A stretch of DNA of 52,087 bases from Escherichia virus TH21, in the sequence record MT446395.1; one strand, 5' to 3'. A program made the translations under genes and the position numbers. Shown in pieces: positions 23,015-27,144 of the stretch; the stretch's first letter is position 1; every line of letters starts with the position of its first letter. Below the pieces are notes generated by a model. The model was not told where the DNA came from and did no database searches. It was given only the letters and a program-made list of their open reading frames with translations.

Positions 23015-23016
23015 TT

Positions 23017-23214
23017 TCAGAATTTAACTTCCTCGACTACCTGGACCATCTCGTATCCAAGGCGGTAACTGTCACCAAGGATTAATCGGCCCATGAACTG
23101 ATCGTTCGTGAAGCTCTCCTTACCCATGGTCCGAAGCGATCCGTGATGGATGATAGTGTCGCCAACCTTCACGTCGTTCTTGTGCGTCAAAACAATTTTG
23201 TTATCCATTATCAA
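23017..23214 (-). CDS. hypothetical protein
   Basis: 65 aa. Confidence 0.4.
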   Translation of the reverse strand: MIMDNKIVLTHKNDVKVGDTIIHHGSLRTMGKESFTNDQFMGRLILGDSYRLGYEMVQVVEEVKF

Positions 23215-23221
23215 GTGCTCC

Positions 23222-23404
23222 TTACATGTGTTTCAGGTAGAAAGCGATTTCACGGATGTTGTCTTCTGGATGAGCCTTCACGACTACCGCGAACATCTTC
23301 TCAACCAGCGCCTTGGTGCTCTCAGGGTTATAACCTTCCTGGACCAGCAGGGCAATAGTGTTTTCGATGGTAACTGGTGAGTTCTTGTTGATGCGCTTAG
23401 CCAT
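23222..23404 (-). CDS. hypothetical protein, first gene of minus-strand accessory operon
   Basis: 60 aa; RBS AAAGGAA; leader ATCGAAACGACAC. Confidence 0.4.
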   Translation of the reverse strand: MAKRINKNSPVTIENTIALLVQEGYNPESTKALVEKMFAVVVKAHPEDNIREIAFYLKHM

Positions 23405-23468
23405 GATGATTTCCTTTAGTGCGTGTCGTTTCGATTAGGTAATAATAGCGAATCACTCCTGATCGGTC

Positions 23469-23485
23469 ATTAGCAAAAAGTGCTA
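23469..23485 (-). promoter_or_regulatory. cassette palindrome TAGCACTTTTTGCTAAT at the head of the minus-strand operon
   Basis: followed by TATTAT and the conserved leader. Confidence 0.45.
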
Positions 23486-23499
23486 TTCGTTCGATTTAT

Positions 23500-23625
23500 G
23501 GATTGTTGCAGCTATTGCAATGATTCACTTCACTATTGCACATATAGCAATATTGCATCGTTTGCAATGATGTTTTCGATTGTTGCGAATTGAGCAATGA
23601 TTCATTGATGGGTGGAATGATGGGG
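23500..23625. repeat. iteron-like cluster of TTGCAATGAT / TTGCA repeats
   Basis: TTGCAATGAT at 23515 and 23562, GCAATGAT at 23594, GGAATGATG at 23614; inverted repeat TATTGC-N7-GCAATA near 23535. Confidence 0.45.
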
Positions 23626-23681
23626 TGAGATCTGATCCCCGATCGCCTGGTAGGATTTTCCCGCCACACGTTTCATCTATT

Positions 23682-23830
23682 TACACGTAACCGAAGTAGC
23701 ACGGTGTAAGCCACACCCATATCGTTACGCGGGTTACGCGCAGCTACGCCCTGACTTACGCCATAAGTCCTTAATATATATATATATCTTCTTTCTATTA
23801 TTATTATTATTATTAATATTATTGTATGTA
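23682..23830. repeat. AT-rich repeat segment paralogous to 2629..2790, with (AT)7 and (TTA)6 microsatellites
   Basis: tacacgtaaccgaagtagcacggtgta vs tacatgtaaccgatgtaactcggtgta; cgcgcagYtacgcc shared; microsatellites in both copies. Confidence 0.55.
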
Positions 23831-24033
23831 AGTCGTGTAACTGGGGTGCTGGAGTTATCTATATGTTTTTTCCTATCAGGGTATATATTTGCTATTTATG
23901 GACGCATTTCGCCAGTACGGGGCCATGACATCAATTTGCCTCGTTACAGCCACGACACCAAACTACATTGAGCTATAGCTGGGCTGTGATACCTTTTCGC
24001 GTAACCACCCCCGAAAGTTACCAAAAATTACAC

Positions 24034-24062
24034 TTGACTACATGTGTAAGTCGGGATACGAT
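24034..24062 (+). promoter_or_regulatory. sigma70-type promoter (TTGACT-N17-TACGAT) for the plus-strand accessory operon
   Basis: hexamers read directly; ATG at 24094 after GAGAGGAG. Confidence 0.5.
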
Positions 24063-24093
24063 TAGCTCAACTTAAACGAGAGGAGTTATAAAG

Positions 24094-24573
24094 ATGAAAG
24101 AGCAAGTAACACTAGGGCAGGTGATTCGTGAGATGGCAAAGGCAGCACTCAAGTCCGAGGATAAGCAATTCAGCGTGCCACTAAGTAAGATTGCAAGCAT
24201 TATCGGAGTCGATGGCGATAACATTCCAAAGCTAAAGAGTTCATACATCTACAACACGACAGCCCGCATGACTGAGCTAAGGGATGTTGGATTGAAAGCG
24301 ACTCACTCCTATGACGACGACGAGGGTGATAGCGAGTTCGGTGAATCAACCCTGGCAGGTGATAGAAGACTGGTTATCAAGCTGGTACCTGGCACGGCGA
24401 ACATTGGAATCAGAAAGAAGACCAATAACGCGATAAAGGAAGAGGCAATCACCGAGTTCAAGGCGAGAATTTCAAAGGTTATGCCAGACATTTCAGAGTA
24501 TGAAGGAGAGGCGCTTGCCGCTGCAATGAAGGCAATTAAAGATTACCGCTCAATCATTGAGGAGATTAAATAA
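24094..24573 (+). CDS. hypothetical protein, first gene of plus-strand accessory operon
   Basis: 159 aa; strong RBS. Confidence 0.5.
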   Translation: MKEQVTLGQVIREMAKAALKSEDKQFSVPLSKIASIIGVDGDNIPKLKSSYIYNTTARMTELRDVGLKATHSYDDDEGDSEFGESTLAGDRRLVIKLVPGTANIGIRKKTNNAIKEEAITEFKARISKVMPDISEYEGEALAAAMKAIKDYRSIIEEIK

Positions 24574-25127
24574 TGTTTGATTTCAACGAAGATAAGTTAA
24601 CTGATGACCAAGTGATGGAAGTCGCCAGGCAAGATAACCTTCTGCCATTGCGCGTGGCAATCAACGCAAACGGATACCGTCAAGCTTTCAAGTTCTGGTG
24701 CAGCGCAGAAGAGATGCTGCGCGTCAAACTGAGCCACAAACAAAGCGTCGTGGTTAAAAGGATTAGCCACCAGGGCCGCAACGGAAAGGGAGTGGTTGGC
24801 ATTAGATCTCTATACGAGGCAATCCGAAAGGTCCAGCCATTCGTCGGGCGCGAAGGGATTATGCATGACCTGACAAATAACATCATCCCAGCACTACAGG
24901 AGGCAGGAATTGTTTGCCTCATTGGCGATAAGATTTATGTGCATCCGGCCCTGGTGGGAATGGATGAACGAGACGTGTACACCTGGTGCAGTCAGCACCG
25001 ATCCGACGCGCGACGTTCTCACTACGTGCCACCGCAGACAACAATCCATGGCTATGATGCCGATGAGGTGGAGAAGGCCATCCAGTTCTACCGGAAAGCG
25101 AAATCTCTCCTGAACGGTGAATGCTAA
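24573..25127 (+). CDS. domain-deleted paralogue of the 17725..19308 P-loop protein (N- and C-terminal segments only)
   Basis: 184 aa; MFDFNEDKL..PLRVAINANGYRQ and GKGVVG.RSLYEA..K..PF...CLIGDKIY match both ends of the 527-aa protein; no Walker A. Confidence 0.5.
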   Translation: MFDFNEDKLTDDQVMEVARQDNLLPLRVAINANGYRQAFKFWCSAEEMLRVKLSHKQSVVVKRISHQGRNGKGVVGIRSLYEAIRKVQPFVGREGIMHDLTNNIIPALQEAGIVCLIGDKIYVHPALVGMDERDVYTWCSQHRSDARRSHYVPPQTTIHGYDADEVEKAIQFYRKAKSLLNGEC

Positions 25128-25342
25128 TGCTTATAAAATGTGTGTATGTAAGGCAAGCCAATCACCACAACCTTTCAGTTGTAAATGGCGGGATATACGT
25201 GGCTAAGCCAATACCTTGTTTTAATGGCTCATACTACATCAAGGTTGATGGCAATGAGTACATAGTGAAGACGATAGGTGAAGCTCTTATGATAAAGAGC
25301 CTTGGTGTTATAATGGCTAAATTCGAAATCGTTCGTGAATAG
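25127..25342 (+). CDS. hypothetical protein
   Basis: 71 aa from ATG 25127 (ORF track 25121). Confidence 0.4.
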   Translation: MLIKCVYVRQANHHNLSVVNGGIYVAKPIPCFNGSYYIKVDGNEYIVKTIGEALMIKSLGVIMAKFEIVRE

Positions 25343-25356
25343 CACAAATTGCTAAA
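25340..25356 (+). promoter_or_regulatory. cassette palindrome TAGCACAAATTGCTAAA
   Basis: TAG stop overlaps; hairpin gggtagtcagctatgattaccc; leader ACGAAGAGGAA. Confidence 0.5.
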
Positions 25357-25412
25357 CAACAAATCGGGTAGTCAGCTATGATTACCCTATCAACAACGAA
25401 GAGGAAATGATC

Positions 25413-25619
25413 ATGGAAACTGTACGTATTGACGATGTTCACTTTGACCAAGCTGAGGTCAGTGTCACGATGAGATCAGTTCGCGGCAATGTTGTCAACC
25501 TGGACTTCGATCCTGACGGTTACGCAGATTGCCAAACACTGATGCATTACTCACCTGACGCGGCTCGCAAATTAGCGGCGGCACTTATTCTGGCAGCGGA
25601 AGAGGCAGAAAAGCAATGA
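25413..25619 (+). CDS. small acidic protein, paralogue family member 1
   Basis: 68 aa; shares V.I.D..AEV....Y.PD.ARKLAAAL..AAEEAE pattern with 25616, 26394 and (more distantly) 26621. Confidence 0.5.
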   Translation: METVRIDDVHFDQAEVSVTMRSVRGNVVNLDFDPDGYADCQTLMHYSPDAARKLAAALILAAEEAEKQ

Positions 25620-25834
25620 TTGATATTCGAGTTAATTCAGCCTGGGATCAGGAGACGGAAATCTCAGTAATCAATGTTCCGTTTGGAAAGATGCGTAAGC
25701 GCGTGCACCTGGACCTTTCGCCGGATTCGCAAGTGGATGGCGCTGGCATGACATACACCGCAGAGCAGGCGCGCGAACTTGCTGCGGCGCTAATTAAGGC
25801 AGCTGAGGAAGTGGAGGCGGAAGTCGATGAGTAA
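25616..25834 (+). CDS. small acidic protein, paralogue family member 2
   Basis: 72 aa; ATGA overlap with member 1. Confidence 0.5.
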   Translation: MIDIRVNSAWDQETEISVINVPFGKMRKRVHLDLSPDSQVDGAGMTYTAEQARELAAALIKAAEEVEAEVDE

Positions 25835-26027
25835 ATTCAGGATCGCATTGATTGAAACAACAACCGCCTTCGGTCATCCGGTCAAGTGGTATGCCGTCCA
25901 AAAACGGGTGGCTTTGTTCTGGTGGGCTACAGTGGCCCATGCAAGCCAGCTTTCCCAGGCTCGCTACTGGCTGCATAAGTCCGGCGCACCGCATCGCAAA
26001 GAGAAAGTAGTGAGGATTATCGAATGA
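25827..26027 (+). CDS. hypothetical protein
   Basis: 66 aa, Trp-rich basic. Confidence 0.4.
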   Translation: MSKFRIALIETTTAFGHPVKWYAVQKRVALFWWATVAHASQLSQARYWLHKSGAPHRKEKVVRIIE

Positions 26028-26314
26028 AGAAACTAATTTTATTAGCAGCACTGGCTCTGGCTGGATGTGATTTCGGAAGCACCCGTGTAGATTCAGAGGC
26101 TCGGCAGAAGATGCCAGTGAATGTCAACGATCGCGTCCAGGTTGTGAAGATTCAGGAGTTCAGGGATGAACTGGCATATGAGAACGTCAGAGCGATATAC
26201 GTCATCACCGATAAGGACACTGGTCAGGAATACATCGGATTAAGCGGTGTCGGGATCGTGGAAGTTGGTCGCCATGGTTGCGGCAAGGGATGCTCCAGAG
26301 AAGATGAACGATAG
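26024..26314 (+). CDS. small lipoprotein
   Basis: 96 aa; signal peptide with lipobox LAGC. Confidence 0.55.
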   Translation: MKKLILLAALALAGCDFGSTRVDSEARQKMPVNVNDRVQVVKIQEFRDELAYENVRAIYVITDKDTGQEYIGLSGVGIVEVGRHGCGKGCSREDER

Positions 26315-26328
26315 CACTTTTTGTTAAA
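26312..26328 (+). promoter_or_regulatory. cassette palindrome TAGCACTTTTTGTTAAA
   Basis: TAG stop overlaps; hairpin gtgcatttgctatagtgcac. Confidence 0.45.
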
Positions 26329-26393
26329 ACTTCCGTGGGTGCATTTGCTATAGTGCACTCATTGAAGTGAAACAATCAACTAAGGGGTAATTT

Positions 26394-26624
26394 ATGAGCA
26401 CAACCGCCGTACGCATCGCTGACGACTCAGGCGAACAGGCCGAGGTAATGGTAAAGAAACTGCATAGCAGCGCCCAGGGCTTTGCATTCAAGGTGTGCGT
26501 TGACTTCAATCCTGAAGAGTATGTTGACGCATCAAGTTACATGGTGTACACACCAGACCAGGCGCGCAAACTGGCATGTCACCTGATGGAAGCGGCCTAC
26601 CGCGCTGAGAAGGGGGTTTTATGA
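26394..26624 (+). CDS. small acidic protein, paralogue family member 3
   Basis: 76 aa; YTPDQARKLACHLMEAAYRAEK tail. Confidence 0.5.
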   Translation: MSTTAVRIADDSGEQAEVMVKKLHSSAQGFAFKVCVDFNPEEYVDASSYMVYTPDQARKLACHLMEAAYRAEKGVL

Positions 26625-26827
26625 TTACAGATCGCAAGCGCTTCCAGGATATGGACGATGATGATTGCTGGATTGACACGATGACCAATAGCGATAACGT
26701 CACTGTAGAAATCGTTATTGACGACGACTCGGGCGCATTCCCGATGCAAGATCCGGCTACCGTACGCGCAATGGGTGAACACCTTATCAAAATGGCTGAC
26801 TACATGGAGCGCCACAATGAACAATGA
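26621..26827 (+). CDS. small acidic protein, probable paralogue family member 4
   Basis: 68 aa; ATGA overlap with member 3; DPATVRAMGEHLIKMADYME resembles family tail. Confidence 0.4.
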   Translation: MITDRKRFQDMDDDDCWIDTMTNSDNVTVEIVIDDDSGAFPMQDPATVRAMGEHLIKMADYMERHNEQ

Positions 26828-27035
26828 AGAAATGGTTAAGATCCGCATTATCAAGTCACCTTATGGCGGCGTAGATAAAAGCAAGCTGCCAGTGGTGGCG
26901 ATGGCCTGGAAATGGGAGGGCGATAACGGAGAGCCATTTTACATGGTTGACGCCGACTTCCTTCCGGCGCTCAGCAAAAAAGGTATGCTTCCTGGCGACT
27001 GGCCCTTTGCAGAAGATGAGGTTGAAGTGCTATGA
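26817..27035 (+). CDS. hypothetical protein
   Basis: 72 aa from ATG 26817 (GGAG 7 nt upstream). Confidence 0.4.
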   Translation: MNNEEMVKIRIIKSPYGGVDKSKLPVVAMAWKWEGDNGEPFYMVDADFLPALSKKGMLPGDWPFAEDEVEVL

Positions 27036-27130
27036 AGTTCAAATTAGTTGACGTGCTGCAATTGCTGTGTATCGGTTTATCGTGGGTGATGCTGTTCCTG
27101 GTGGTAATCTTCCTGGCTGTGGTGAAATAG
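27032..27130 (+). CDS. 32-aa hydrophobic membrane peptide
   Basis: not in ORF track; single predicted TM helix; ATGA overlap; stop TAG is part of the next cassette. Confidence 0.35.
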   Translation: MKFKLVDVLQLLCIGLSWVMLFLVVIFLAVVK

Positions 27131-27144
27131 CACGAATTGGTAAA
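27128..27144 (+). promoter_or_regulatory. cassette palindrome (TAGCACGAATTGGTAAA)
   Basis: followed by ctgactggTATACT. Confidence 0.45.

Follow-up and report, generated by a model that had tools for sequence, protein, structure and literature searches.

A probable four-member family of small acidic proteins in coliphage TH21, with a possible remote link to T7 Gp4.5

Why does a lytic coliphage carry two tandem pairs of genes for tiny acidic proteins, and are the four proteins one family? The stretch of DNA analysed here (the window; 52,087 nucleotides (nt), Escherichia virus TH21, sequence record MT446395.1) is a complete genome, that of a lytic, T1-like, Nouzillyvirus-like coliphage of the Drexlerviridae. 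The genes in question, here called A to D, lie between positions 25413 and 26827 (Table 1). An earlier note made from the sequence alone had described them as a rapidly diverging family in an early operon, with host takeover or anti-defence as the guessed function. We find that A, B and C are paralogues and that D very probably belongs with them. The four appear to be paralogues that separated long ago within a single phage-specific family of ~70-amino-acid (aa) proteins, D being joined to the others through a broad sequence profile and its predicted fold. Profile comparisons and structure models point to small accessory proteins, perhaps remotely related to T7 Gp4.5, on a PC4/PUR-like scaffold. 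Our best reading is that they are small acidic binders of host proteins or anti-defence proteins, to which we assign a probability of about 45%; Lon is the only candidate target.

Relationships among the four proteins

All four open reading frames (ORFs) encode small acidic proteins (pI 4.1–5.2), as had been noted, and the ATGA overlaps described for A/B and C/D are present. Each has a Shine-Dalgarno (SD) site, and A to D are real coding genes. For A, the ORF lister picks ATG 25407, but the SD sequence GAGGAA sits 7 nt 5' of ATG 25413, which on this spacing is the likelier start. Scanning all ORFs of at least 35 aa in the genome with the family hidden Markov model (HMM) returned no member beyond A–D. 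The C-terminal half of the sequence pattern proposed earlier (Y.PD.ARKLAA.L..AAEEAE) fits A exactly; the N-terminal half had been misspaced and reads V.I.D, five residues, then AEV.

BLASTP matched A to C at E 2e-14 (47% identity over 68 aa), B to C at 5e-9 and A to B at 3e-7. This likeness is far beyond chance and leaves no doubt that A, B and C are paralogues. No BLASTP match was found between D and C. D falls in a PHROG family of its own (phrog_16871), and PHROGs treats this family and phrog_13316 as unrelated and functionless. The fourth member is thus the more divergent one, as the earlier note had it, and the multi-copy family that it proposed holds for A–C by BLASTP and PHROG and for D by a broader profile and predicted structure.

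A first hhalign comparison of the A–C and D families returned 98% probability and was rejected as an artefact of an N-terminal extension common to entries of both sets. The extension is the translated upstream promoter leader (MDRVVSYDYPIDN...), carried by database proteins called at the upstream start. With leader-bearing entries removed, the narrow profiles A5 and A6 aligned at only 10.9%. An exhaustive HMM search of 1.84 billion representative proteins with the A–C profile yielded 54 proteins, mostly of 58–97 aa with a strand-rich N-terminus, which have the motif M-x-Y-T-P-x-Q-A-R-x-L-A-A-x-L-I-x-A-A in common. Two long matches, P0178 (2650 aa) and P0186 (339 aa, with repeats), were discounted as apparent repeat or low-complexity matches. 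A broad profile, A7, comprised 44 sequences from this search, none of them D-type. It aligned end to end with the D family (89%, E 2.1e-6, 62 columns), scoring 34.8 against 9.6 for the reversed alignment and at most 14.7 in 100 column-shuffled controls, which are lenient in that shuffling destroys secondary-structure periodicity. As an HMM, A7 found D of this genome among 1341 ORFs at E 6.4e-7 and matched 37 of 38 D-family proteins; nothing outside the A–D and Gp4.5 families scored below E 4.8e-3.

AlphaFold2 models of A (strands at residues 2–7, 13–22, 25–31 and 44–46, helix 48–67; predicted local distance difference test score (pLDDT) 79.3) and D (strands 2–9, 15–23, 26–33 and 36–41, helix 45–66; pLDDT 86.8) have an identical order of elements, four strands followed by a C-terminal helix. 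The two models have BFVD neighbours in common, and A-family models rank 4 and 16 among the neighbours of D, with template modelling (TM) scores of 0.46–0.48. It is improbable, on this evidence, that D is a small protein of separate origin whose beta-rich-plus-helix architecture arose by convergence, which would leave the family with three members here. The lack of BLASTP similarity, the separate PHROG family, the low narrow-profile score, the leader artefact and the modest TM scores would all suit convergence; the end-to-end A7 alignment, the A7 HMM matches and the agreement in strand order, length, adjacency to C and place after the same leader (in phage SU57) speak against it. D is therefore very probably a divergent member, and phrog_13316 (A–C) and phrog_16871 (D), of which the four are direct members, are linked here by the broad profile and predicted fold.

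Predicted fold and distant relatives

The predicted fold is a four-stranded antiparallel beta sheet with an alanine-rich C-terminal helix, of the PC4/PUR-repeat type. The models of A and D show the four antiparallel strands and one helix within ~60–70 residues that are characteristic of the PC4/Sub1/PUR-repeat/Whirly fold. Identity of the A–D family to this group, including the phage T5 PC4 homologue (PDB 4bg7), is only 7–13%, and no sequence-level relationship to PC4/PUR structures was detected. A sequence search of the PDB returned only non-significant matches, to YefM/RelJ antitoxins (E 0.3–0.8). Known PC4/PUR/Whirly members bind nucleic acids via basic and aromatic residues of the sheet. 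Judged from composition alone, with net charges between -3 and -11, A–D appear to lack such a surface. PC4/PUR-type proteins work as dimers, and PUR repeats pair to make one domain.

Were A–D to follow the known members, they would be dimers that bind single-stranded DNA or RNA for phage replication, recombination or transcription, a role reportedly proposed for the T5 homologue. The predicted fold agrees with this, but the acidic charge contradicts it, and we consider it quite unlikely. Acidic dimers on a DNA-binding scaffold could alternatively act as nucleic-acid mimics, in the manner of Ocr and phi29 p56, by filling the site at which a restriction enzyme, a RecBCD-type enzyme or some other host defence nuclease binds DNA or RNA. 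The acidity is strong and clusters in the hairpin loops beta1-beta2 and beta3-beta4 (DDVHFDQAE and DFDPDGYAD in A; DMDDDD and IDDDSG in D), and the small size, dimer-prone fold and accessory character of the family would suit such a role. On the other side, C is just mildly acidic (net -3), and no similarity of A–D to known (Ocr-like) mimics was found in sequence or fold (Pfam, BFVD and PDB sequence searches); we give mimicry a low probability.

The only functionally characterised protein with detectable sequence similarity to the A–D family is T7 Gp4.5. This protein reportedly inhibits Lon and so counters the sanaTA abortive-infection system (PMC11482910, PMC8230891), and is of conditional importance on hosts with CcdAB and in the face of a RADAR system (PMC11482910, PMC8230891, PMC11323111). 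B matched the corresponding Pfam family, PF17574 TA_inhibitor, at E 0.0016 (18.9 bits), and A, C and D gave no match at E up to 1; at E <0.01 one of 44 family representatives matched. On these scores B is the family type closest to Gp4.5. Against T7 Gp4.5 itself, A7 aligned at 77% (hhalign, E 2e-5), and against a Gp4.5 family alignment (39 sequences) at 69% (E 4.3e-5, 60 columns); the two alignments span 57–60 columns. The score was 30.7, with at most 15.5 in 100 column-shuffled controls. HMM matches were reciprocal: with the Gp4.5 model 23 B-type proteins were recovered, and with A7 43 of 85 Gp4.5 proteins. The signal is consistent but weak, and we lean towards a common ancestry of Gp4.5 and the A–D family.

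Several features are common to the two. Gp4.5 is likewise a small non-essential phage protein, and both have an N-terminal I-R-[LV]-x-[DS] strand and a motif around beta4 and the helix start (T7 RMTLTDEQALRLVNALTKAA; B GMTYTAEQARELAAALIKAA). The aligned segments come in the same order, strand-rich and then helical, Gp4.5 being read from its sequence only. Gp4.5 differs in being longer (89 aa with a further C-terminal segment, against 68–76 aa) and in occurring once in T7, against four copies in this phage.

A second, more distant resemblance was to DUF6907, with 12.7 bits for A and 15.7 bits for B, below the 26-bit gathering threshold; seven of the 44 representatives matched at E <0.01 (best 7e-4). 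The C-terminal third of the DUF6907 model matches the beta4-helix module T-P-x-Q-A-R-x-L-A-x-x-L. DUF6907 is longer, at 116 positions, and is itself a domain without assigned function. It is a doubtful extension that phrog_13316, phrog_16871, PF17574 with T7 Gp4.5 and the C-terminal DUF6907 module make up one hitherto unrecognised beta4-alpha superfamily of PC4/PUR-like phage mini-proteins, repurposed from nucleic-acid binding to protein inhibition, in which Nouzillyvirus-type arrays would be diversified inhibitors, every one of them neutralising its own host protease or defence (Lon/AAA+, toxin-antitoxin abortive infection).

Other database comparisons were negative. A 'DUF600' (YezG-like) label on D orthologues (CJ19 L012 4920-5144; 50EP L001 3629-3853) was not reproduced: D of this genome, the only D-type sequence scanned, had no Pfam match at E up to 1. 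A–D were unmatched in NCBIfam. No match of A–D to a structural or housekeeping family, which the earlier note had said would count against its reading, was found in Pfam, PHROG, PDB sequence or NCBIfam searches.

Distribution, selection and proposed function

The region from 24.0 to 28.0 kb matched 303 phage records by megablast, nearly all T1-like siphoviruses of Escherichia, Klebsiella or Shigella, the closest being the Nouzillyvirus vB_EcoM_50EP, an Escherichia phage of the Drexlerviridae (86% identity across 80% of the query). Only 73 phage records carry an A-type copy (tblastn). The carriers are mostly Drexlerviridae; they also include ~140-kb Vequintavirinae such as Escherichia phage A73 (142 kb), in which an A-type copy lies at L010 3501-3710 with about 54% identity. 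The presence of this copy in an unrelated large myovirus lineage indicates, at the level of sequence, that the A–D family has passed horizontally from one phage family to another. IMG/VR yielded only five loci. For two distant homologues, P0207 and P0182, the context was uninformative (short contigs with unannotated small overlapping genes).

Copy number, from HMM mapping on fetched loci, ranges among relatives from 1 to 5-6 per genome: five in TH30, five plus a truncated one in CJ19, four in 50EP, three each in P817 and TH27, two in JulesPiccard, D followed by A in SU57, and one in A73. ATGA coupling of both A-B and C-D is kept in 50EP, the IMG/VR locus L003, CJ19 and TH30, the A-B pair in ETEP102 and the C-D pair in P817 and TH27. 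This retention, and the pairing of PUR repeats into one domain, would suit a role in the phage's own programme, as small regulators or as adaptor or chaperone subunits for neighbouring gene products, with A-B and C-D as coupled heterodimers. In a 134-aa protein from a metagenomic contig, P0335 (related to window positions 26621-27035), D is fused to the product of the downstream 72-aa gene; the fusion may stem from a sequencing error or a frameshift, or else may point to D and the orf72 product acting jointly. The pairs are not obligate, however: P817, TH27 and JulesPiccard have A but lack B, BUCT-XGG-1 has C but lacks D, D stands before A in SU57, and A73 has its single copy. Overlaps are moreover the rule across the operon, and most Drexlerviridae are without the family. 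We regard such an internal role as very unlikely.

Five proteins (P0013, P0018, P0063, P0076 and P0080) combine an A- or B-type N-terminal sheet with a C-type C-terminal helix (QLACHLMEAAHRAEKGVL). These natural chimeras, relatives of window positions 25413-26624, show that paralogues have recombined where the conserved QAR-LA junction lies. A separate family of ~60 aa in related phages (L009 6829-7011 and L004 3337-3516; …HLTEEQARELAYEILEQLNKI) matched the broad profile weakly (E 5e-3 to 9e-3), by way of a helix start, T-x-E-Q-A-R-E-L-A, as in A–D. Helix starts of this type may be the hallmark of a larger group of small phage proteins.

The ratio of non-synonymous to synonymous substitution (dN/dS) between A–D and their orthologues in six to eight related phages was 0.00–0.50 at dS 0.06–1.4. 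Values were 0.10–0.20 for A, 0.16–0.50 for C and 0–0.09 for D, the last against close orthologues at dS about 0.4; the D protein is identical to its P817 orthologue despite a dS of 0.38. Orthologues of A–D are under purifying selection, and the description of the family as rapidly diverging does not hold. The family as a whole is accessory, mobile and recombining, and its individual orthologues are conserved.

We propose that A–D are non-essential accessory genes in the non-structural half of the genome, where they come first behind sigma-70-type promoters. Each copy would be a small acidic protein inhibitor that binds a host protein stoichiometrically and blocks it. The proteins may dimerise like other members of the fold, with the conserved beta4/helix segment forming the core or the dimer interface and the variable, Asp-rich hairpin loops the target-binding face. 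Separate paralogues could then cover separate targets or target variants. As a concrete target only Lon or another AAA+ ATPase suggests itself, and its inhibition would shield the phage from toxin-antitoxin abortive infection. This candidate is named because of the analogy with T7 Gp4.5, which is weak, and Lon specifically is an unlikely target.

A number of observations weigh against A–D as host-protein binders. Known members of the PC4/PUR fold bind nucleic acids, not proteins, and the purifying selection, with no acceleration seen, is unlike a classic arms-race signature. The link to Gp4.5 is strained at several points: B misses the 27-bit gathering threshold of PF17574; D gives no signal against Gp4.5; Gp4.5 was not recovered in the exhaustive protein search; and among the top 50 BFVD neighbours no entry is named Gp4.5 or T7-like, many rows being nameless. 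No solved relative of Gp4.5 was found in the PDB. The shuffled controls, as said, are lenient. Of the residues invariant in Gp4.5 (V33-Y34-R35-W36, H45-T46-Q47-R48, T50, Q55 and L59), the A–D family has only the Q-A-x-x-L of the helix start; opposite YRW and HTQR it has V-x-L-D-F-D-P and variable loop residues. By residue count from sequence, Gp4.5 also has more lysine and arginine than aspartate and glutamate, whereas A–D are acidic. Given these differences in charge and invariant residues, the functional surfaces of the two would differ. Relatives of A–D are all annotated 'hypothetical'; a literature search found nothing on the A–D family or on small accessory proteins of Drexlerviridae; and neither experimental nor guilt-by-association evidence for early timing, host takeover or an anti-defence role was found. 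The earlier guess of host takeover or anti-defence is reasonable but unproven.

Promoter-type cassettes and neighbouring genes

The two pairs head two transcription units, A-B-orf66-lipoprotein and C-D-orf72-orf32, in both of which the family genes are promoter-proximal; the second unit ends at the next cassette (27127-27144). A palindrome cassette had been described before each pair, and both are present. In the cassette before A, the hairpin GGGTA/TACCC (25366-25370 / 25383-25387) encloses a -10-like TATGAT (25377-25382), the motif centre lying 30 nt 5' of this box. Before C, the hairpin GTGCA/TGCAC surrounds an extended -10, TGcTATAGT (-10 box 26349-26354). Neither the cassettes nor the ATGA overlaps are special to these pairs. 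The motif ATAGCACGAATTGCTAAA has 13 copies genome-wide at up to 3 mismatches (0.05 expected) and about 18–20 at up to 4, and overlaps also join B/orf66, orf66/lipoprotein, D/orf72 and orf72/orf32.

The motif takes the form ATAGCAC-N5-TTGCTAAA, contains the palindrome TAGCA-N5-TGCTA and usually overlaps the stop codon of the gene before. Downstream follow a variable hairpin, a -10-like hexamer (often TGn), the conserved CATCGAAACGAA, an SD sequence and ATG. In 18 sites the distance from motif centre to -10 start is 29–31 nt, which puts the palindrome at about -42 relative to the predicted start. TTGCTA within the palindrome lies 22 nt from the -10 box and is therefore too distant for a -35 element. 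All good copies fall within 2.6–31.0 kb (2605-30984), and none was found in the 31–52 kb half, which holds the remaining long plus-strand ORFs. A literature search on the motif found nothing. The A and C cassettes are genuine, yet form part of a promoter/operator architecture common to the whole non-structural half; as a set the cassettes look, from their sequences, like a regulon restricted to that half, with promoters that depend on an operator or an activator.

Table 1. Positions of the family genes, cassettes and neighbouring features in the window.
Feature	Position	Strand	Length (aa)	pI	Net charge	Match or remark
A	25413-25619	+	68	4.43	-7	phrog_13316 (E 7.4e-13, residues 1-68)
B	25616-25834	+	72	4.43	-8	phrog_13316 (E 2.2e-8); ATGA overlap with A
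C	26394-26624	+	76	5.19	-3	phrog_13316 (E 3.6e-6)
D	26621-26827	+	68	4.11	-11	phrog_16871 (E 3.1e-12); ATGA overlap with C
orf66	25827-26027	+	66			basic; phrog_2010; unrelated to A–D family, co-transcribed in first unit
Lipoprotein	26024-26314	+	96			lipobox LAGC (MKKLILLAALALAGC); unrelated to A–D family, co-transcribed with A and B
orf72 and orf32	26817..27130	+	72 and 32			acidic (orf72) and hydrophobic (orf32); co-transcribed second-unit genes, unrelated to A–D family
Cassette before A	25339..25412	+				motif ATAGCACAAATTGCTAAA at 25339-25356, overlapping preceding stop codon; SD GAGGAA
Cassette before C	26311..26393	+				motif ATAGCACTTTTTGTTAAA at 26311-26328; SD AAGGGG
Cassette sites (examples)	4094, 9635, 12226, 13540, 15687, 25339, 26311, 27127, 27384, 28631, 30355, 30984	+				motif
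Cassette sites (examples)	19814, 21422, 22610, 23015, 23486	-				motif
ORF-poor region	23016-24093					~1 kb, separates divergently transcribed gene blocks
32-nt repeat, three copies	23496-23604					in ORF-poor region, which also has a minus-strand cassette copy at 23470-23487
Gene upstream of 184-aa gene	24094-24573					DUF7174
184-aa protein	24573-25127		184			phrog_7327 (E 3e-92)

Duplication of a whole unit was considered as the origin of the two units and rejected, since orf66 and orf72 are unrelated. The 96-aa lipoprotein has weak PHROG matches, one of them to the Cor superinfection-exclusion family (phrog_1119, E 0.0018), and from these may be an exclusion or receptor-blocking lipoprotein. 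Upstream, the 184-aa protein also matches the C-terminal end of phrog_2373 'DNA helicase' (E 1e-21, profile positions 444-514 of 515) and, from this match, resembles a helicase C-terminal domain that stands alone. The ORF-poor region could be a candidate origin, pac or early control region; Rfam gave no match within 22.5–28.5 kb.

As it stands, the locus is an ordinary accessory-gene expansion, of the kind seen in most lytic phage genomes. If A–D are indeed inhibitors of host proteins, this phage would offer four natural variants of one tiny scaffold, and its relatives up to six, for comparing target specificity. Gp4.5-type counter-defence, itself poorly understood, would then extend from T7-like to T1-like and rV5-like phages.

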